DNA from: a virus
Strand: one strand, 5' to 3'
Length of the DNA stretch: 37,840 bases
UHGV virus genome: UHGV-0090851
The first letter of the stretch is position 1, and each line of letters starts with the position of its first letter. Below the pieces are notes generated by a model. It was not told the DNA's origin. It did not search any database and saw only the letters and a list, made by a program, of their open reading frames with translations. Shown here in pieces: positions 1,921-23,795 of this stretch. The position numbers and the translations under genes were made by a program.

Positions 1921-2415
1921 CTATGCTGGTTTTTCTGGCCACTCTGGCTTTGAGGTATCGACGCGCATCAGTAAGACCCGGTATTTTTTCCATTCTGACA
2001 AAGCGGCGGTTTCGTCTTCTGTCGCTATTCCCGCATCAACCGCATCCTGCCGCCATGCAATTTCAGAATCAGCTTTCAGCCTCAGGCTTGCCTTCATAGC
2101 CTCTGAATCAGCGATTAACTCGCTCTGCGATTTTTGATACTCGACCAGTTTTCCACCGATTAATCGCTGTTTATCTGTATCAATCGTTTCAGCATTAATC
2201 TCCACCACATAGAAGCCAGCAGGGTCAGGAAGGCTGGAAACATCGCGTGTAAACGCTGAAATACGGCCGTCATCGTCGTAGAGGATTTTTAGTGTATCTT
2301 CAGCAAAGTTATTCTGTTGCTCATACCAGTCGCCGTCTGCGTTTCTGGAATAGCTGACAGTGCCATATTTCAGATTATCTGGTGTGTAACGTTCAAATTT
2401 TTTACTGAGTGACAT
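1921..2415 (-). CDS. Tail fibre assembly protein (Tfa-like chaperone)
   Basis: 164 aa, directly downstream of the tail fibre gene with a 14-nt overlap; C-terminal region typical of Tfa proteins; ATG verified at 2413-2415. Confidence 0.75.
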
Positions 2416-3310
2416 TGACCCATGCTCCGTTAATGTAAGCCTGAAGAGTTGCGACTTTTACTTTGTTAAGTACCCACGCACCACCACCTGGCGTCGGGGT
2501 GATATAAATACCCACAACCATTTCACTAGTTGTGAAATTCATCCAGGCATCTGCAGTCGTAACAGTTACTTCTCGGGGCGCAGAAAGGCGCAATGCTGAA
2601 ACCGACTCGCCCGCCAGAGCCATTGTCCCTGCTTTATCTGGGATGATAATTGCCTTACCGTTAATCCCTGTAATGGTCGCCTGGTTGTTCGTGGAATAAA
2701 TACCAACACGGATAATATTATTGCTGTCCGTAACCTCTAATCCGTATCTGCATGAAAGTGCGTCAGATAATGATTGTTTCGTGCTGGCGTCCGTAATGAC
2801 GTAGTTTCCTTTCGGTTGCAATTTATCAATACCGAAAGCGGCTTTAACTCCATCAACAGTCGTTTGACCTGTCCCCCCTTGTGTGACAGGTAGAGCGATA
2901 GCGGCTCCGGTGTCGTTATTCCACATTCCCCAACTGGTGTTCGACACCAGGAGAAATTTTTTCAAATCAGGAGAGAAAATCTTCGTGGATACAGGGTCGG
3001 GTTTAATGGTCTGCAATCCAAGGTTTTCGAGAGCTGTTTTCACCGTGCCATCCGATTTGATATCGCCAAACGGATTCTTGCGGCTTAACAGCAGCGCGCG
3101 AAGTGCGGTAAGTAACTGGTCGTGCCGCCCCTTCTCCAGGCTGGCACCGGATGCCTCCACCACGCTGCAAAGTTCCTCCTGCAACATGTCAAAGTAGTCA
3201 TCATCCAGATCGGTGGCAGGCGTGCCGGTCTGGGGGTTACCACGGGTAAAACCGTTCTTACCCGCGCCGAACTTATCCTTCTGCGCGGTTTTCGTGTCTA
3301 TACGATGCAT
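2402..3310 (-). CDS. Tail fibre protein (short, receptor-binding part)
   Basis: 302 aa, Gly/Thr/Asn-rich C-terminus, placed between the baseplate gp48-like gene and Tfa; ATG verified at 3308-3310. Confidence 0.7.
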
Positions 3311-11275: not shown

Positions 11276-11628
11276 TGGTAATCCCCTTCTTCACCGTGGA
11301 ACTCAAGATCAACCGTGCCTTCTTCGGCATTATGGTTCGCTTCTCCGTGCAGCCAGGCGGACGACAATACATAGACCTGACCGTTCGCCAGCTCGGCAGT
11401 GATGGTCATCTCATCAGACGAGGTGATTTTGCTCACCGGAAAATTCTTCGGCACCTTGAAGGTCCCTTTGACATAAGGCGCACGGTGAGTTTCCTTGCGG
11501 TCCACTGAACCGTCCAGACCGATGATGTCATCGTTAACCGTTTTGTTCATGGGCACCTCAATGCCGCCGGTCAGCGATAGCTGCTGACCGTCAATTTTGA
11601 AATAACAGGTTCCCCCGATACGGGCCAT
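11272..11628 (-). CDS. Tail tube protein
   Basis: 118 aa directly downstream of the sheath gene; ATG verified. Confidence 0.75.
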   Translation of the reverse strand: MARIGGTCYFKIDGQQLSLTGGIEVPMNKTVNDDIIGLDGSVDRKETHRAPYVKGTFKVPKNFPVSKITSSDEMTITAELANGQVYVLSSAWLHGEANHNAEEGTVDLEFHGEEGDYQ

Positions 11629-13124
11629 TATGCAGACTCCTCTGAATACTGAAGACGGAACTGGTTAACCACGGCAAAGACACGCAACTGGTTAACATAG
11701 TCAGGCGGGAACAGCGTGTTCAGGCGGTTCGGATCGCTGGCATCACGCTCCACAATCAGGTACTGCTTGAACAGTTCGTAGTTTTCCACGATCCCCGCAC
11801 GCTCGAGCTGACGGTAGGTTGCCAGCAGTTCCCCTTTGATCACCGCCGGGGTGACAATCGCCTGACCGGGACCAAAGCGGGTACCGTCGCTGGCAAGCTT
11901 GTGACGCCCGTACTTACTGGTAATGACGGATTTCAGTTTGCGCAGTACATACGCACTGGTATGCAGCGTCTCGCTGTCGAGGTAGCTGTTATCCGCAACC
12001 CCGTAAGCGTTTTTCCTGTACGTGGTGACATCACGCTGAATGCGCAGTACCCCGCTTTCGACATACGCCGTTGCCACGCCATGAGACAGCAGGGTCTGTT
12101 GTTCGGTCATCGTGAACCGTTTCCCCTTCGGCGCAGGCAGCATACCCACCAGCTCACCGGTCTGCGTGGAACGTGCCGGATCGTTGCGGATAAACACCGC
12201 TGCGCGGGCGGTACGGCTTGCCGCCAGCTCGTCGGCAGGCGTCTGGGTCTCTTTTTCGTACCCCGCCAGGGTAATGTGCTGCTGGTTAAACTGGTCACCT
12301 GCGGTCACCAGTTCTGACAGCGTGCCGATCTTTGCCGTATACACATGACCATACAGCTGACGCGCATAGCTCCAGCGACCGCTGGTATCGTTCATCTCGG
12401 TCACCAGCGTGTTAACGGAGGCTGTGTCGTTGAACGGCAGGCCGATATAATCAAACGGCTCATCCGCCATTGCAGCCACCGCGCCGGTGAGAACAGGAGC
12501 GCCCGTTCCGGCGGTACCCGTCGCCACGGCAATCTGTACGCCCGCTGGCAGCACTTCGCCCCCACCAAAGCCGTAGTAATTGAGGCTGACAGGAATTTCA
12601 TTCCCGCAAAGCCCCTTATGACGCGCGGTCAGTGTGACCACGCCTGCCGAAGATGAAGCCGTAAACGGCAGGGTCGGAACGGCATTGATGGCATCCTGGA
12701 TACTGCTGGCAATCGTCGCAACGTTATCGCCGTTGGTCACCGGTGCCTGCACGCGGGTACGTCCCACATAAACATTCACCGTGCCGGTTTCGGTTGCCGC
12801 GCCGGTCACCGTCAGCGTAACCGTTGCCGCCGCGCCCGTGGATTCAGGAACGGCAATCACATACAGCTCGCCAAACGGGTCGGTCTGGCGATAAGCCTCG
12901 ACCATACGCGCCAGCTGACTTCCCGCACCACAAATCTGGCGTGCATAGTCTGCCGACGGCATCAGTACCAGACTGTTGGCAACAATCTCCGCACCGTTAT
13001 TGGCATGACCAATCAGCAGCGATGCTCCGCTGTCCTGTGCAGTATTCGCCGCCTGATTATCCATTTCCGCATAAAACAGCGGAACCAGCGTATTCGACGG
13101 AATGGTGTTAAAGCTTATCGTCAT
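11628..13124 (-). CDS. Contractile tail sheath protein
   Basis: 498 aa; sheath family features; sheath then tube order. Confidence 0.88.
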   Translation of the reverse strand: MTISFNTIPSNTLVPLFYAEMDNQAANTAQDSGASLLIGHANNGAEIVANSLVLMPSADYARQICGAGSQLARMVEAYRQTDPFGELYVIAVPESTGAAATVTLTVTGAATETGTVNVYVGRTRVQAPVTNGDNVATIASSIQDAINAVPTLPFTASSSAGVVTLTARHKGLCGNEIPVSLNYYGFGGGEVLPAGVQIAVATGTAGTGAPVLTGAVAAMADEPFDYIGLPFNDTASVNTLVTEMNDTSGRWSYARQLYGHVYTAKIGTLSELVTAGDQFNQQHITLAGYEKETQTPADELAASRTARAAVFIRNDPARSTQTGELVGMLPAPKGKRFTMTEQQTLLSHGVATAYVESGVLRIQRDVTTYRKNAYGVADNSYLDSETLHTSAYVLRKLKSVITSKYGRHKLASDGTRFGPGQAIVTPAVIKGELLATYRQLERAGIVENYELFKQYLIVERDASDPNRLNTLFPPDYVNQLRVFAVVNQFRLQYSEESA

Positions 13125-16527: not shown

Positions 16528-17178
16528 TTAGAAGTTCAGATTTTTCAGTGCATTCAGTGCAGAGCCCACATCCTCAGCGTCGCGCAGGGACAGTGCGCTA
16601 TAGCCCCCGGCCATGAATGCTTTGGCCTGGGTGCGGGAGAGTCCGACATCACGCAGGACTCTTTCGATTTTTTTCTGTTCGGGGATTTCCCCGCGGGCCA
16701 GTGCGTTCTTGACGTCGCTGATCCGCGCCTCGTCGTTAGACGGGAACGTCACCAGGCTGACTTCCCAGAGGTCGATTTCTTTCAGCAGAAAGGCTTCTTT
16801 GCTCCGGTCGTATTCCCAGTCTTTCAGGACGTACCCAATAGAAAGGCCGGTTAACGAACCGGCCTTCATGTGTGCATGTGCGCGTTTTGCGAGGGGATCA
16901 TCATCAATAAGCAACCGTCCCCTGACGTAAAGCCCGACATCGTCTTCCTTCATTTCGGTGTAAACACCGATGGGTTCATCCATGCGGTGCTGCCAGAGCA
17001 GCGCAGGTAACGCTTTTCTGTCACTCCACGCCCGCAGGGAAGCAGCAAATGCCCCGGACATCACCACATCATCGTGGCTGTCCTTTACACCAAAGACGGA
17101 GCCATACCCTTCAAACTCACCGGAGTCACTGACAGATTTCAGACTCAGCGGTACATCAAGACGTTGTTTCGTCTGCAT
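16528..17178 (-). CDS. Prohead protease (HK97-type)
   Basis: Start preferred at ATG 17176-17178 (SD AAGGA); the table's longer ORF begins at 17214 with no SD. Order is portal, protease, capsid. Confidence 0.8.
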   Translation of the reverse strand: MQTKQRLDVPLSLKSVSDSGEFEGYGSVFGVKDSHDDVVMSGAFAASLRAWSDRKALPALLWQHRMDEPIGVYTEMKEDDVGLYVRGRLLIDDDPLAKRAHAHMKAGSLTGLSIGYVLKDWEYDRSKEAFLLKEIDLWEVSLVTFPSNDEARISDVKNALARGEIPEQKKIERVLRDVGLSRTQAKAFMAGGYSALSLRDAEDVGSALNALKNLNF

Positions 17179-18397
17179 TGGCGTTATCCTTCTGCTTACC
17201 GGCTTTACTGCCATCGGAGGGTTTCGTGGTCATGTTCATCGGTGTGAGATAGACATCACCACCGGGACGCGGATTCATATCTTCCAGGTCGCGGCAGTCA
17301 TTGGGAGAGTAAATTCCCCAGTTGATCCCGGTGGCGTAGGCTTCAAAACGGGACTTCATATCCCCGCGCAGTAACGCCCCGGCGTTAAATTTGGCGTAAT
17401 AAACGCCCTGCTTACTTTTTCGTACCAGTCCGGTGTTGATCCGCTGTTCGATGCGGGTCAGATACGGCACCAGTGAATAGTTGATAAATCCCAGCCCCAG
17501 CTCTTCGATATTGTTGAAGGTGGCGCGATCGGTGTTCTGCACCATGTGCAACGGCACCCGGAACAGACGACAGATTTCTTCAAGCTGAAACTTGCGGGTT
17601 TCCAGGAACTGGCTGTCCTCGGCGTTCAGCGCCATCGACTTCCAGTCCAGCCCCATCTCAAGGATCATCGGGCGGTGAGCATTGCCAAGCCCGGTGTGAC
17701 GCTCCTCAAAATCTTTCTTCAGGCGCTCATAAGCCTGATCTGACAGCGTCTGCTCTGTACGCAACACACCCGACGTCACCGCGCCATTGCTGAACAGTCT
17801 GGCCCCGTGCTCTTCGGTCGCAGCTGCCAGCGATATTGCCTCGCGGGCATAGGCGATGGGATTCAGCCCCACCAGTCCGTCCAGCGTCAGCGTGCGCACA
17901 TGCCAGATATCCTCCTGGCTCAGTACATCCGTGGAGCCATCCGGGAATGTGACCTGATAGATCGGCTCCCAGCTACTGTTAAGCTTCGGTACCACACAGC
18001 CGGGATCGACGGGCAGCAGTTCAGCCACTTCGCCAAATGCTTTCACTTTGTAGGCGTAAAAGTTTCCTCGCAGGCACAGACAGGTGACCACCAGCTCCCA
18101 GAACTCCTGCGGCGTCATATAGCCATTGGGATGCGTGGAGATCAGTTTATGCAGACGTTCGCCGGTGGCTCTCTGTTTCAGGCTGCCGTTCAGGTGATAC
18201 AGGTTGCAGGGCAACATCCCGACCGACTCCGCCAGCACCCTGACGCAGGAAAAAACCGCCGTCAGTCGCATGGCCCGCTGGCTGCTGATCTGCTTTCCGG
18301 TATAGGTGTCATATGACAGCCCGATAGCATCCGCCAGCTCTGCTGGCGTGGTCACCGGTGCGTCACTTTTTCGTTGAAATAATCCCGAAAAGAACAC
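17156..18397 (-). CDS. Portal protein
   Basis: 413 aa; GTG start at 18397 with strong SD GGAGG; follows the large terminase. Confidence 0.85.
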   Translation of the reverse strand: MFFSGLFQRKSDAPVTTPAELADAIGLSYDTYTGKQISSQRAMRLTAVFSCVRVLAESVGMLPCNLYHLNGSLKQRATGERLHKLISTHPNGYMTPQEFWELVVTCLCLRGNFYAYKVKAFGEVAELLPVDPGCVVPKLNSSWEPIYQVTFPDGSTDVLSQEDIWHVRTLTLDGLVGLNPIAYAREAISLAAATEEHGARLFSNGAVTSGVLRTEQTLSDQAYERLKKDFEERHTGLGNAHRPMILEMGLDWKSMALNAEDSQFLETRKFQLEEICRLFRVPLHMVQNTDRATFNNIEELGLGFINYSLVPYLTRIEQRINTGLVRKSKQGVYYAKFNAGALLRGDMKSRFEAYATGINWGIYSPNDCRDLEDMNPRPGGDVYLTPMNMTTKPSDGSKAGKQKDNANADETTS

Positions 18398-18579
18398 TAT
18401 TTACCTCCGCCGACAGACGGCTGTGTACGGTTGAGATATCGCGCCACCAGCCACGACCAGAACAGGCACAGCGCCCCGGCAACAACAAACCCCGCCGGGG
18501 GATAAATCAGCCAGGCACCATACGCCAGCAAAAGCGCACCCAGCACGCCCACCAGAGGCGCGAGAATCAGCATGATCAT
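18397..18579 (-). CDS. Small hydrophobic (membrane) protein between terminase and portal
   Basis: 60 aa, almost entirely hydrophobic with two predicted TM segments; ATG with SD GAGGT; its stop overlaps the portal start. Confidence 0.45.
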
Positions 18580-18590
18580 AATTACCTCAG

Positions 18591-20324
18591 TTAAAGCGAG
18601 CGGATCCCATAGGACTCAATGTGGTCAGACAGCGTGTCTTCTTTCTCGTACAGCATGGCTCTGCCAACCGCCATAATCAGCGCAACTGCACCATCGATTT
18701 TGTTTTCCGCCTGCTCTTTGACGGGCTTCACCACATCATCGTTACCCGGAATGGTTTTGCCGACCACGTTGCCGATACACCAGGTCATGATGGGATTGCC
18801 ATCATGATGAAAGCGCCCCGATTCAATTGCCGCTTCCAGCTCTTTCATCGGGTCGGACATGTTGGTGTAGTTCTGAATGATGGTGACGGGGTTCAGGTCT
18901 TCATCAGCAAGGTCATGTGAGAGCCCGGTCGCCCCGAAGGGGTCGATGGGTGACTCGCTGACCGGGCTGATTTTGTTCGCCGCTTTGGCCTCTTCGAGGA
19001 TGTAGCGATAATCCACCTCTGCACCATCGGTAACGGTCAGGACGCCCATTTCCACCCATTTCTGAAAGCGTTCGGCTGTCCGGCGATCTTCATTTTTCTC
19101 GACGCTGTACACCGTGTCATACGGTACCCAGAAACGCGGGGCCACACTGTAGTAATGCGTTTTACCGTCAATCTCGCGGGTATAAAGTCGCGCCATGCTG
19201 TTCATATCCAGCTTACGCGCCAGGTCAAAGGCCAGAATGCACGGCTGCCCCTCGAACTGCTCAAGGGTCAGTGATTTATCCTCGCAGCTCTGCCAGCTCA
19301 CCAGGTTGAAATACGCCGAACGCGCCGACACCCAGATATTGAGGTGTTTTGTTTTAAAGACGTTTGCCAGACGGGCGTTATTTTTCGCACGCTGCTGCTG
19401 ACTTAACAAAAATTCGCGATAAACCGACACGCCAATATTCGGGTTAGCTTTTTCCAGCACCTGCGGGTCGGTCCAGTCGTCTCCTTCATCAACGGTATAG
19501 ATGATCCCGAACAGTTCATCGTTAGGCACCGAGCCGTTGAGCATCTCGATGACTTCCCGCCGCTTGTCGTAGCACGGCCCCTCAATGTTGTACCCGGCGG
19601 TAGTGATGGCCCACATCAGTGGCTGACGTCGCGCCCCCATCCCGGTAAGCATTGTGGTATAAAGCGCATCGGTGGCATGCTCGTGATATTCATCAACCAC
19701 GGCACAGTGGGGTGATGAACCATCACCGGGGTTGCCGATCAGCGGTTCAAACCGCGCGCCATCCTCCGGACGGTTCATGTTTGAGGCGTTAACCTCAATC
19801 CCGAACGCTTCCGTCAGCATGGGTGTGCGTTTACACATCAGTCGCGCCGGGCGAAAGACTTCCCACGCCTGTTTCTCTGTCGTGGCACCGGAATACACTT
19901 CCGCGCCAAACTCGTTATCACAGGCAAAACAATACAGGGCAACACCGGCAGAGATTGCCGATTTGCCGTTCTTACGGGGGATTTCGGTATACACCTCCCT
20001 GAAGCGGCGCAGCCGGGAGCCTTTATTGACCCAGCCAAACGCACAGCAGATCACAAAGAGCTGCCACGGCTCCAGCGTGATGGGCATCCGTTTGAATGCC
20101 CACTCACCCTTGGTGTGCGGCAACAGCTGAATAAATTTCGCAGCCCGTTCAGCCAGGTCCTTGTCGAAGCGGTAACGAAACGACTTACTTTTTTCCACCA
20201 TCAGGTCATCAAGATGGCGCTGGCAGGCCTGAATCACAAACTGGCAGGCAACAATCTTTCCGCGCACGACATCCCGGGCATACTGATTGGCAGCATTTAC
20301 GTTGGGGTAAGATTTCCGGCTCAT
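18591..20324 (-). CDS. Terminase large subunit
   Basis: 577 aa; ATPase and nuclease regions; ATGA overlap with the small-subunit stop. Confidence 0.9.
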
Positions 20325-20815
20325 GACTCGATGATTTTCAGAAACGGGTTAGTGGCTTTCTTCTGCCCCGCCAGGCCAATCAGACGCTGGCGGCTGCTGG
20401 GGTCGAGTCCGAGCATTGCCCCCGTGCTGCTCATCTCGGACTCCTGTTCTTTCTTGGCGGTCAGCTCCGGGTTTTTGACCATACCGCCCATTGCACCGGT
20501 AATGGTGTTGCCCTGGCTGGCAATATTTTTCACGGCACGTCGCCAGAACTCATAGGCCACGCACCACCGCTCAAGCACCGCGAGGTCAGTCACGCACAGC
20601 AAGCCCTGACCGCAGAGTTCTTTGGTTGTCAGTTGCCACATGATCGTGGCGAGAGGGAGATCTTCTTCAGCGAACCACTCCGGTGGCTCAACACCTTTGA
20701 TGGGCGTAAAAACAGGTTCATCTTTATTCAGGGCTCGCTTGCCGGGGTTTCCGGCAAGCGCCTTGCGCGCCGTTGGCTTGGGGCGACGCCCGGAACGCCC
20801 CGCCGTTCCAGCCAT
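20321..20815 (-). CDS. Terminase small subunit (P27 family-like)
   Basis: Start taken at ATG 20813-20815 (SD AGGAG 8 nt upstream); the table ORF starts at GTG 20824. Confidence 0.7.
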
Positions 20816-20824
20816 ATGCGGCAC

Positions 20825-20940
20825 TCCTGGTTAAATTTCATTTTTCGCGGGTATAAAAAAACGATGGGGCGGGCAGTCCGGAAGACGTCAGGTCACAGAG
20901 ATTTGACCCGCCCCTCCCCTCAGACAGTTGAGAGTTATTA
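20825..20940. other. Candidate cos / packaging-site region
   Basis: 116-bp non-coding gap between HNH endonuclease and terminase small subunit with a G-rich inverted repeat (GGGGCGGGC...GCCCGCCCC). Confidence 0.3.
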
Positions 20941-21291
20941 TCACTTAAGCCGTTCACGGGCCGTCTTCGCCTTATGACACGGCCAGCACAGACTCTGCAG
21001 ATTACTGTCGGCATCAGTGCCGCCATGTGCTTTAGGGATGATGTGGTCAACGGTTTTCGCTTCACGCGCCACACCGGCACGCAGACATAACTGACACAGG
21101 CCTTTGTCACGTTGCAGCACACGCACACGGATAACATCCCACTTAGAACCATAACCGCGCTGATGACGGGATTGTCCTGACTTGTATTGCTTCCAGCCTT
21201 CGCTTTTGTGGCTTTCGCAGTAGCCTGACGGGTCTGTCGTGGTATTACGGCAGCCGCGAACGCGGCAGGCTTTTGGAGTTCGAGGGGGCAT
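20941..21291 (-). CDS. HNH endonuclease (terminase-associated)
   Basis: 116 aa with Cys-rich zinc knuckles and an HNH-type motif (VDHIIPKAHGGTDADSNLQSLCWPCH); immediately upstream of the terminase. Confidence 0.85.
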   Translation of the reverse strand: MPPRTPKACRVRGCRNTTTDPSGYCESHKSEGWKQYKSGQSRHQRGYGSKWDVIRVRVLQRDKGLCQLCLRAGVAREAKTVDHIIPKAHGGTDADSNLQSLCWPCHKAKTARERLK

Positions 21292-21317
21292 AAATATATT
21301 CCTGATCTTTGTCCGGA

Positions 21318-21590
21318 CTATTTGCCTGCTGCCAGCAAAGCGTTACGGCGCATCTCGATACTTCGAATCCCCGCTTTGTCAATATTGCATTGTCCCAACG
21401 CCGAAAGCAGGCTCACATTCAGATCCAGACTGGCCCCATAGGTCAGCGGCTCGGGAATGACTGGCTGGGGAGTTTCAGTAGTCAGGCTTGCTGGCAACGG
21501 TACCGCCGGAATCGGTACGTAAACTGTTCGCGTACTTCCGCAACCGGTCAGCAGCGGCAGCAGGCACAGGACGTGAAGCACAATCATCAT
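21318..21590 (-). CDS. Rz1-like outer-membrane spanin (o-spanin) in the +1 frame of Rz
   Basis: Internal ATG at 21588-21590 gives MMIVLHVLCLLPLLTGC..., a lipobox followed by a Pro-rich mature region; overlaps the Rz 3' end and extends beyond it. Confidence 0.6.
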   Translation of the reverse strand: MMIVLHVLCLLPLLTGCGSTRTVYVPIPAVPLPASLTTETPQPVIPEPLTYGASLDLNVSLLSALGQCNIDKAGIRSIEMRRNALLAAGK

Positions 21591-21867
21591 CCGCAACAGC
21601 CACTTTGATATCTTCCTGGGTTCTCTGTGACTCCAGTGTGATCTGCTGTTTTGCATGCTGGTTAGCCTCCAGAACTGTATTGACGATTTGCAGTGATTGC
21701 AGGACGTTATTGGTAATGACAGTTGCCGATTTGGCATTTTGTACAGCCTCATCAGCACGTTTCTTTTCGTGCTGATATTTGCTGTAGTAGTGGTTGGCAG
21801 ACCAGATGAAAGAACCGATGACAGTAAAGAAGAATGCAGCGATAACCAGCTTATAGCTCAACTTCAT
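21475..21867 (-). CDS. Rz-like inner-membrane spanin (i-spanin)
   Basis: 130 aa with N-terminal TM segment and coiled-coil periplasmic region; overlaps the endolysin stop. Confidence 0.75.
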   Translation of the reverse strand: MKLSYKLVIAAFFFTVIGSFIWSANHYYSKYQHEKKRADEAVQNAKSATVITNNVLQSLQIVNTVLEANQHAKQQITLESQRTQEDIKVAVADDDCASRPVPAAAADRLRKYANSLRTDSGGTVASKPDY

Positions 21868-22327
21868 TTACCACCCCACCAGCCTCTTTAAACCGGGAAA
21901 TCAGATCACTGATTTTATGTTCATACTGACCATAACCTGCACCAGGTAACGACGCCCAGATATTGCTGCAACGATCGATAGCCTGACGGATATCACCGCG
22001 ATCAATCATCGGTAAAGCGCCACGCTCCTTAATCTGCTGCAATGCCACAGCGTCCTGGCTTTTCGGAGAGAAGTCTTTCAGGCCAAGCTGCTTACGATAG
22101 GCATCCCACCAACGGGAAAGAAGCTGGTAACGTCCGGCGGCTGTTGATTTGAGTTTTGGGTTTAGCGTGACAAGTTTGCGAGGGTGATCGGAGTAATCAG
22201 TGAACAGTTCGCCACCAACAATAACATCATAACCGTGGTTACGTGTCGGTTGTCGCCCGTTATCCGTTCCTTCTGACCATGCCACCATATCCAGGAAAGC
22301 TTTACGCTGGGAATTTAGTGCCTGCAT
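21851..22327 (-). CDS. R: Endolysin, lambda R-like lytic transglycosylase
   Basis: 158 aa; near-identity over long stretches to lambda R as recalled (QRKAFLDMVAWSEGTDNGRQ...RYQLLSRWWDAYRKQLGLKDFSPKSQDAVALQQI). Confidence 0.9.
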   Translation of the reverse strand: MQALNSQRKAFLDMVAWSEGTDNGRQPTRNHGYDVIVGGELFTDYSDHPRKLVTLNPKLKSTAAGRYQLLSRWWDAYRKQLGLKDFSPKSQDAVALQQIKERGALPMIDRGDIRQAIDRCSNIWASLPGAGYGQYEHKISDLISRFKEAGGVVNEVEL

Positions 22328-22330
22328 AAA

Positions 22331-22666
22331 TTACTCCTTCGAGCTACCAAATTTGTTACCGATTACTCGCATTGCAGCCCCACGAATAGCATCGACACCG
22401 ATCAGCCCCACGCCACCACCAATGGCAACAGAAAGCGATTTAGGCCATCCGACATATTCAAGAGCGGATGCAAAGGTCAGCGTCAGAGCGCCACAGAGCA
22501 AAATCTCGAGCGTTTTTCGCTTCCAGCCACCACCACCGCCAAAATAGGCGATGCGCAAACCAGCCATAACGATCGACATAATCACTGCACCCAGCGGTGT
22601 GTCTCCACGCCACCAGCTCTGAAACAACTCCAGCCAGTCCGGCCAGGTATTTGGGTTATGAGGCAT
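22331..22666 (-). CDS. Holin (lambda S-like, class I)
   Basis: Start taken at ATG 22664-22666 (about 111 aa, three hydrophobic segments); the table ORF extends to a GTG at 22762 that overlaps the methyltransferase gene. Confidence 0.6.
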   Translation of the reverse strand: MPHNPNTWPDWLELFQSWWRGDTPLGAVIMSIVMAGLRIAYFGGGGGWKRKTLEILLCGALTLTFASALEYVGWPKSLSVAIGGGVGLIGVDAIRGAAMRVIGNKFGSSKE

Positions 22667-22742
22667 TTCGTCATCTCTCACCTCGCGATATTTGCGGGTG
22701 CTGTGTTGGAAATAAAAAGGCCACGCAACGTGGCCACCAGAA

Positions 22743-23795
22743 TTATTTCCCCACCAGTTCACTTACCTCTTTCACCGTCTGATTAAACCGCTCTGACTCA
22801 AGTTCAACACCTAACGCCCGACGCCCCAGCGCCATTGCTGCTTTTATTGTGGAACCGGATCCCATAAAGAAATCAGCAACCAGATCACCAGGTCGACTAC
22901 TGGCATTGATTATTTGCCGGAGCATATCCGTCGGTTTCTCGCACGGATGTTTACCCGGGTAGAACTGAACGGGCTTATGCGTCCAGACATCGGTATAAGG
23001 CACGGAGACTGATACGGAGAAATAGCGCCGGAGAGATTTAAACTCATCCAGCAATTCAGAATATTTGCGATTCAGTGAATCATAAGATGCCACCAGCTGG
23101 TGGTGTGGTTGTTCCAGTTGTTGTTCCTGAAACTTCTCTGCCGCTATACGGGAAAACAGTGCCTGTAACTTCCGATAGTCAGCCTCATTCGGCAACTGCC
23201 ACTGACTGGCACCAAACCAGTGGGAAACCATATTTTTCTTACCTGTGGCTTCGGCAATTTGTTTTGCCGTTATACCCAGTTCGGCACGAGCATCCCTGAA
23301 ATACGATATCAGCGGTGCCATTATGTGCTGTTTGAGTTCCCTTTCTTTTGCCGCATAGCCGTCACTTTTGCCGCGATATGGCCCCCGGTAATGTTCAGCA
23401 AACAGAACGCGCTCTGTGGCAGGAAAATATGCGCGCAGACTTTCTTTATTACACCCATTCCAACGTCCGGACGGCTTCGCCCAGATGATATGGTTAAGCA
23501 CGTTGAAACGTTCACGCATCATGATCTCAATATCAGATGCCAGGCGATGCCCACAGAACAGGTAAAGGCTTCCGGCAGGTTTCAACACCCGCCAGAACTG
23601 GGCCAGACAGTGGTCCAGCCACTTAAGGTAATCTTCGTCCCCTTTCCACTGATTGTCCCAACCGTTAGGTTTCACCTTGAAGTAAGGCGGATCGGTAACA
23701 ATCAGGTCAATGGAATCATCAGGCAGGGACTGAATAAAATGCAGGCAATCAGCGTTGATTAAATCAACACTGTTTATTTTTACAGTATTTTTCAT
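22743..23795 (-). CDS. DNA methyltransferase, beta-class (DPPY then FxGxG), probably N6-adenine
   Basis: 350 aa; DPPY motif near the N-terminus (LIVTDPPYF) and AdoMet-binding motif near the C-terminus (DFFMGSGST); ATG verified; no adjacent restriction endonuclease. Confidence 0.85.
   Translation of the reverse strand: MKNTVKINSVDLINADCLHFIQSLPDDSIDLIVTDPPYFKVKPNGWDNQWKGDEDYLKWLDHCLAQFWRVLKPAGSLYLFCGHRLASDIEIMMRERFNVLNHIIWAKPSGRWNGCNKESLRAYFPATERVLFAEHYRGPYRGKSDGYAAKERELKQHIMAPLISYFRDARAELGITAKQIAEATGKKNMVSHWFGASQWQLPNEADYRKLQALFSRIAAEKFQEQQLEQPHHQLVASYDSLNRKYSELLDEFKSLRRYFSVSVSVPYTDVWTHKPVQFYPGKHPCEKPTDMLRQIINASSRPGDLVADFFMGSGSTIKAAMALGRRALGVELESERFNQTVKEVSELVGK

Follow-up and report, generated by a model that had tools for sequence, protein, structure and literature searches.

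A YmfR-type gene for a predicted membrane hairpin precedes the portal gene in the head module of an SfII/e14-type prophage

The 37,840-nucleotide virus genome UHGV-0090851 (the window, meaning the whole stretch of DNA analyzed) carries a short hydrophobic open reading frame (ORF) between the genes for the large terminase subunit and the portal. The question raised by this locus is what a predicted membrane protein does within a packaging module. We find that the ORF is a genuine gene, that its product is on sequence grounds an ortholog of Escherichia coli K-12 YmfR with the predicted architecture of a two-helix membrane hairpin, and that it is co-inherited with the portal module. The sequence bears out the first-pass annotation of a 60-residue, highly hydrophobic ORF at 18397..18579 with a proper Shine-Dalgarno (SD) sequence. 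The ORF lies on the minus strand, runs from an ATG start to a TAG stop, has a grand average of hydropathy (GRAVY) of 1.20, and is preceded by GAGG (18585..18588, minus strand) 5 nt ahead of the ATG. Its placement between large terminase and portal was also correct, and Pfam matches identify both neighbors. The upstream gene (18591..20324, minus strand) matches PF03354 and PF20441, and the downstream gene (17156..18397, minus strand) is an HK97-type portal with a GTG start that matches PF04860. The terminase stop codon (TAA, ending at 18591) is separated from the small ORF by 11 nt. The reported overlap of the stop with the portal start amounts to one base shared by the TAG (18399..18397) and the GTG (18397..18395). 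The portal SD sequence, GGAGG (18404..18408, minus strand), is located 6 nt ahead of the GTG and is formed by small-ORF codons 58 and 59 (GGA GGT). The GC content at third codon positions is 0.69 in the small ORF compared to 0.66–0.68 in the neighboring genes. The accompanying remark that a membrane protein is not expected in a packaging module was overstated, because such a gene is the rule and not the exception in this lineage of HK97-type head modules.

Identity and conservation of the small gene

Sequence comparison identifies the small protein as a YmfR ortholog that is already known and annotated, and uncharacterized. The window protein and YmfR (b1150) align over 60/60 residues with 58 identities (97%), and N50D and P54S are the only substitutions. 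In K-12 MG1655, ymfR belongs to the cryptic prophage e14 and has the RefSeq name 'IPR020297 domain-containing protein YmfR'; the e14 gene order including ymfR is given in e14-deletion gene lists (PMC12956098). The K-12 gene likewise lies between a terminase remnant (ymfN/aaaE) and a portal remnant (beeE), but these neighbors have decayed in e14 and are intact in the window. About a quarter of complete E. coli genomes (1347/5426) carry the gene, where the RefSeq feature is 'ymfR: protein YmfR'. The match to PHROG 502 ('membrane protein'; E = 5.5e-28) pairs ORF residues 1–55 of 60 with profile positions 3–57 of 58. The defining features of the YmfR family (IPR020297/PHROG 502) are all present: a full-length sequence match, the length and hairpin with a Y-P-P-A-G-type turn, and the position ahead of the portal. 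Megablast places the window with the temperate phages SfII, SfIV, SfI, ST64B, and phiP27, and DNA identity to the SfII/phiP27/ST64B group is 84–97% over the terminase end, the small ORF, and the portal start. SfII (SfII_03), phiP27, and ST64B (Sb3) label the same gene 'putative integral membrane protein', with no material difference. We assign this identity and the architecture described below with high confidence. As a sequence feature the gene is ordinary: its K-12 ortholog is a named y-gene, and its orthologs in familiar Shigella, Salmonella, and Stx phages are annotated too.

Conservation and codon-level selection were used to judge whether the frame is real. A search of 5.8 billion proteins recovered 165 homologs, nearly all exactly 59–61 residues long, from Escherichia, Shigella, Salmonella, Citrobacter, Klebsiella, Enterobacter, Yersinia, Hafnia, and Buttiauxella. 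An alignment of 24 homologs reaching down to 58% identity contains 18 invariant positions. Codon alignments from eleven loci gave a ratio of nonsynonymous to synonymous substitution rates (dN/dS) of 0.18–0.34 for the small ORF in pairs with dS >1, and the variable columns are concentrated at third positions (59, compared to 40 and 34 at the other two). The terminase and portal values are 0.02–0.08, meaning that selection on the small ORF is weaker, in keeping with a short protein whose C-terminal tail is free. These data show that the small-ORF frame is under purifying selection and is a genuine gene. The first-pass annotation had proposed conservation at this position as a check and its absence from relatives as the sign of a spurious ORF; frame, length, and position are kept in relatives with as little as about 35% identity and between phyla. 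Rfam and tRNA scans of the whole window returned no matches, so no RNA gene explains the conservation. Pfam and NCBIfam searches with the small ORF returned sub-threshold noise only (TctB, DUF1206, and an ABC permease). An antisense 78-residue ORF (18358..18594, plus strand) with an Arg/Gln/Pro-rich translation spans the whole gene, and it was set aside as a shadow of the real frame.

The family extends well beyond the Enterobacterales. A profile search of 1.84 billion representatives (clusters at 50% identity, cut-off E ≤0.001) matched 403 clusters, nearly all encoding proteins of 50–70 residues with a common core from G-x-x-G through to -x-G. A genome scan covered one genome per species and used the Y-P-P-A-G turn motif as the retrieval pattern. 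Relatives outside the Enterobacterales come from Massilia, another Burkholderiales genome, Reyranella, Sphingopyxis, Shinella, Rhodopila, Micromonospora, Ruminococcaceae, Yanshouia, and one Dehalococcoidia genome, which places the family in prophages of Proteobacteria, Actinobacteria, Firmicutes, and Chloroflexi. Residues G14, G21, W23, P28, G30, and G35 persist from the Enterobacterales to the Firmicutes and Chloroflexi. The first IMG/VR scan returned near-identical E. coli prophages only. Loci L024–L044, from Reyranella and related alphaproteobacterial metagenome-assembled genomes (MAGs), include many near-identical copies of a 67-residue variant, MMKLLA...YGAWMIYPPAGFI...GNRAAG, ahead of portals. 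In several of these loci the terminase is 1.2–2.2 kb away and other genes lie between it and the small ORF.

Linkage to the portal gene

Gene context was surveyed, using portal and terminase profiles made by jackhmmer, in all loci that the genome scan and two IMG/VR scans had yielded. The portal-profile match starts within 100 nt of the small-ORF stop in 78/80 distinct relatives, and the median distance is 0. The terminase adjoins the small ORF in 70/80, is 0.4–2.8 kb away in 8/80, and the upstream sequence is too short to tell in the remaining 2/80. One-base overlaps between stop and start (TGATG, TAGTG, or TAATG) occur at 52 of the 67 distinct junctions, and an SD-like tetramer is present within the last 21 nt of the small ORF at 51 of them. 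Three distant enterobacterial homologs (58–63% identity) have the order HNH, small terminase, large terminase, small ORF, portal, S78 protease, and capsid, and the small-ORF stop touches the portal start in all three.

Pairwise distances associate the small gene with the portal. The Spearman correlation of small-protein distance is 0.90 with portal distance and 0.67 with terminase distance, the same value (0.67) that is obtained between portal and terminase. Pairs with near-identical portals and terminases that are >30% diverged have a small-protein distance of 0.10, compared to 0.35 in pairs with terminases <10% and portals >10% diverged. Phages phi467 and vB_EcoM-606R7 have the small ORF and portal in common and different terminases. 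The correlations and the discordant pairs show that the gene belongs to the portal module and not to the terminase: it diverges with the portal and is co-inherited with it. The small ORF occurs with a contractile tail in the window (sheath, 11628..13124) and with other tail genes in locus L007, and this occurrence with different tail modules suggests a link to the head module and not to the tail.

The small gene appears to be read with its neighbors. Promoter-like and terminator-like sites within 17000..21500 are no commoner than in shuffled sequences and none flanks the small ORF, suggesting that a gene without its own promoter or terminator is transcribed with the late packaging/head operon. 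K-12 ymfR is induced along with other e14 genes by SOS-inducing treatment (PMC10012262). The SfII record (KC736978.1) annotates a 'putative rho-independent terminator' at 2370..2419, within the 5′-terminal part of the small ORF. The window RNA was folded at 18515..18575 (minus strand) and gave −19 kcal/mol compared to −19.6 for shuffles (z 0.22), and the SfII annotation is probably mistaken. The Pro-Pro-Ala-Gly codons CCC CCG GCG GGG (18489..18503, minus strand) are self-complementary and form a weak terminator-like hairpin followed by TTTGTTGTT. This is the sole minus-strand terminator-like match of the scan within the ORF, and its fold is no better than shuffles (z −0.23).

Phage SfV was an apparent exception, having a terminase as in the window group but a portal of another type, with nothing annotated in the gap. 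It was ruled out as a relative that lacks the gene, because its sequence (U82619.2) contains an unannotated divergent copy. The 53-residue ORF with two transmembrane (TM) segments at 2289..2450 (plus strand) overlaps the terminase stop and runs into the portal start. It matches PHROG 7105 (3e-22), PHROG 502 (5.7e-6), and the family profile (26 bits). The SfV-type protein is likewise a two-TM hairpin in the same slot, but it has F-G-M-A-P-A in place of the Y-P-P-A-G turn and precedes a different portal subtype. The annotated SfV portal start, GTG 2392, falls inside this ORF. That start is probably too far upstream and the real one near 2440, as judged from the ORF translations and not from the nucleotides.

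Other records annotate the gene inconsistently. In SfIV (KC814930.1/NC_022749.1) the ORF is present at 2382..2483, with 94% identity over the part that BLAST left unmasked, and is unannotated in both records. The ymfR-type gene is labeled 'head-tail joining protein W' in ON470584.1, ON470603.1, ON470580.1, and PQ793804.1, the records of vB_EcoM-689R6, -720R4, -606R7, and Salmonella phage As1; the name seems to have been carried over by position from the lambda A-W-B order. Two records attributed to Gram-positive sources, OR844959.1 ('Enterococcus phage Efm 3-10', 1764 bp) and JAEWTL010000102.1 ('MAG: Bacillota bacterium'), are 93–97% identical to enterobacterial terminase-ymfR-portal DNA and are probably contaminating or mis-binned E. 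coli prophage rather than Gram-positive phages. The corrections to existing annotation concern the wrong 'gpW' names, the gene missing from the SfIV and SfV records, and the probably wrong SfV portal start.

A predicted membrane hairpin and its possible role

The architecture of the small protein was predicted from hydropathy, alignments, and an AlphaFold2 model built with a 49-sequence alignment. The model has helices at residues 2–25 and 29–52 joined at Y26-P27-P28 and a disordered tail, with a mean predicted local distance difference test score (pLDDT) of 69.6. Hydropathy, conservation, and the model place TM helix 1 at residues 2–22 (18514..18576, minus strand), which include the invariant P8, G11, G14, L17, L18, and G21. 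The turn I-Y-P-P-A-G, residues 25–30 (18490..18507, minus strand), is the most conserved motif of the family and is predicted to be periplasmic. The predicted TM helix 2 spans residues 31–46 (18442..18489, minus strand) and carries the invariant G35, C38, L39, W41, and S42. Residues 47–60 (18400..18441, minus strand) form a basic C-terminal tail with variable alignment columns and low pLDDT, predicted to be cytoplasmic from its charges. R47, R51, and K60 are the only charged residues; the N terminus and turn are free of charge and all net positive charge is in the tail. By the positive-inside rule, this distribution predicts that both termini are cytoplasmic and that the Y-P-P-A-G turn is outside. 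Hydropathy and the modeled hairpin support the tiny two-TM membrane protein of the first-pass annotation, with insertion into the inner membrane and topology as predictions.

The conserved residues are the intramembrane glycines G11, G14, G21, G30, and G35, an aromatic belt of Y20, W23, Y26, and W41, and the turn. In the tail, G58 and G59 are invariant in the Enterobacterales and the rest is variable, and the retention of this pair is explained by the portal ribosome-binding site that it encodes. The idea that the Pro-Pro pair stalls ribosomes was ruled out because distant relatives have a single proline (Y-E-P-A-G, Y-A-P-A-G, or Y-Q-P-A-G). A Foldseek comparison with viral models returned other uncharacterized small hairpins only, none at E ≤0.001, and such a comparison is uninformative for a hairpin of 60 residues at pLDDT 70.

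These properties suggest a candidate role in head assembly. A late gene of an SfII/e14-type prophage encodes a 60-residue helical hairpin predicted to insert into the cytoplasmic membrane, and ribosomes ending the small ORF can restart on the portal message through translational coupling by the embedded SD sequence and the stop/start overlap. Late in infection, the hairpin may then serve at the inner membrane as an accessory factor when the portal enters head assembly or packaging, where it might place new portal subunits at the membrane or nucleate the portal ring there, as an analog of T4 head initiation. T4 head initiation is membrane-associated and involves the portal gp20 with the membrane chaperone gp40. 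A membrane protein that aids a portal-based head start on the inner membrane is the working analogy and not a homology: no gp40 family is found among the Pfam/PHROG matches of the small ORF, and the T4 portal and head lineage differ. A second parallel comes from PRD1, whose packaging vertex contains the small integral membrane proteins P20 and P22 (PMC4267777). Like the small ORF product, these are very small membrane proteins tied to a packaging portal, but the capsid of PRD1 is of an unrelated lineage and encloses a membrane, whereas tailed phages do not have a virion membrane.

Several observations weigh against this role. HK97, a phage with well-studied head assembly, has no such gene, and its terminase (542-2056) abuts the portal at 2056. 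The hairpin is common in the lineage but not universal and is unneeded for HK97-type portal incorporation in general, so any role would be accessory and not universally required. The C-terminal tail, the sole part predicted to be cytoplasmic, shows the least conservation, which fits poorly with a specific contact to a portal in the cytoplasm, and the conserved residues sit inside the membrane and in the outer turn. Fusions of the portal or terminase to the small ORF were searched for and none was found, and a PDB sequence search with the family profile found no relative among solved structures. Full-text searches of the literature on YmfR yielded no functional study or experiment, and ymfR is mentioned there only incidentally. 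The gene was on the first-round list of an ASKA membrane-protein screen and was not retained (PMC10299036). Tight adjacency and co-inheritance would also be expected for any gene merely needing portal-level expression. A portal-assembly or packaging role of the hairpin at the cytoplasmic membrane, drawn by analogy, is accordingly offered as tentative. A more specific version is doubtful: as a widespread, overlooked morphogenetic co-factor, hairpins made one-for-one with the portal by coupling would oligomerize via the conserved glycines and template or anchor the dodecameric portal ring in the membrane, and a large branch of HK97-type phages would, like T4, begin to assemble heads or package DNA there. 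Taken as a whole, in a compromise between the firm identity and architecture and the tentative role, the explanation is given somewhat less than even chances.

Alternative explanations and significance

The junction with the portal also suits a translational leader, a short ORF that sets the amount or place of portal synthesis by termination-reinitiation and releases a peptide with no job of its own. Under this explanation the ribosome-binding site of the small ORF replaces direct coupling to the terminase. In its favor are the overlaps at 52/67 junctions and the portal SD sequence embedded in the last codons, which accounts for the invariant C-terminal Gly-Gly. The HK97 portal is instead coupled directly to the terminase, and the portal is needed in few copies per capsid. 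A leader does not account for the conservation of a specific peptide as far as the Firmicutes and Chloroflexi with dN/dS at 0.2–0.3, or for a length held at about 55–65 residues, and the predicted fold of the RNA around the portal start is no stronger than that of shuffles (z −1.0). We consider a leader without a functional peptide unlikely.

A pore-forming or membrane-perturbing late protein is unlikely to the same degree. Such a holin-, antiholin-, or viroporin-like protein would tune membrane potential or the timing of lysis during head filling. Phage 21 S is a class II holin (pinholin), and the small protein resembles this class in its size of ~60–70 residues, two TM helices, predicted N-in/C-in topology, Gly/Ala-rich helices, and basic tail; the conserved intramembrane residues also fit helix-helix oligomerization. 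However, the prophage has its own lambda-S-type holin (22331..22762; PF05106, E = 5.9e-27) in a lysis cassette 3.7 kb upstream of the small ORF in the operon. The small ORF is not beside an endolysin gene and matches no Pfam holin family at E up to 0.1. Holins adjoin endolysins and are poorly conserved, whereas the small ORF is attached to the portal across phyla. The putative endolysin and spanin ORFs follow the holin within 21475..22762 and have no Pfam match above threshold. One of these, a 158-residue ORF (21851..22327, minus strand) between the holin and the spanin-like ORFs, is presumably the endolysin and has no Pfam match at E ≤0.001. Directly upstream of the holin, and overlapping its start, is an N6/N4 DNA methylase gene (22743..23795, minus strand; PF01555, E = 1.6e-42), and the arrangement is the same in locus L007.

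The small protein could instead be a virion-associated or ejected protein, a hydrophobic hairpin carried close to the portal to assist the passage of DNA through the cytoplasmic membrane in the next round of infection. Its co-expression and probable co-translation with the portal are compatible with incorporation into the virion, and the hosts have very different envelopes with the cytoplasmic membrane in common. Against this, the gene is independent of tail type, has no relative in solved phage structures, and encodes no soluble or amphipathic part that would shield the hairpin in the capsid. A search for virion mass-spectrometry data on the small protein found none. We judge a virion function improbable.

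Even less probable is a moron, meaning a membrane protein for lysogenic conversion or superinfection exclusion inserted in the structural operon. PHROG 502 is assigned to the category 'moron, auxiliary metabolic gene and host takeover', and small membrane exclusion proteins are found within late operons, HK97 gp15 being an example. The small ORF does not have the promoter and terminator of an inserted unit, it is set 11 nt from the gene upstream and overlaps the one downstream by 1 nt, and the terminator annotated inside the SfII copy folds no better than shuffles (z 0.22). Its base composition is that of its neighbors, and it keeps a fixed position and diverges with the portal across phyla instead of occurring sporadically. 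Co-induction with e14 genes, base composition, and constant position all speak against a moron or lysogenic exclusion gene, despite the PHROG category.

The remaining two explanations, a lambda gpW-like head-tail joining protein and a spurious ORF, have together a negligible chance of being right: although several GenBank records use the gpW name and lambda W, a small gene (68 residues), fills the same slot between the large terminase A and the portal B, gpW is a soluble head-completion protein of opposite hydropathy, the gpW reading is refuted by the missing Pfam match (PF02831, E up to 0.1) and by a GRAVY of 1.20 and an all-helical hairpin model incompatible with the soluble gpW alpha/beta fold, and conservation with purifying selection rules out a spurious ORF.

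The preferred explanation remains a YmfR-family hairpin that may assist the portal at the membrane. The family is small and strongly conserved, with hundreds of clusters in four or more phyla, and it is joined to the portal gene by a coupling architecture that is itself conserved. With this depth of conservation and such strict coupling, the hairpin is a reasonable if small subject for experiments, and testing is easy given that inducible SfII, SfIV, and P27-type phages and K-12 tools are available. Should the hairpin prove to assist portal assembly or packaging from the membrane, the best-studied capsid assembly lineage would gain a component.

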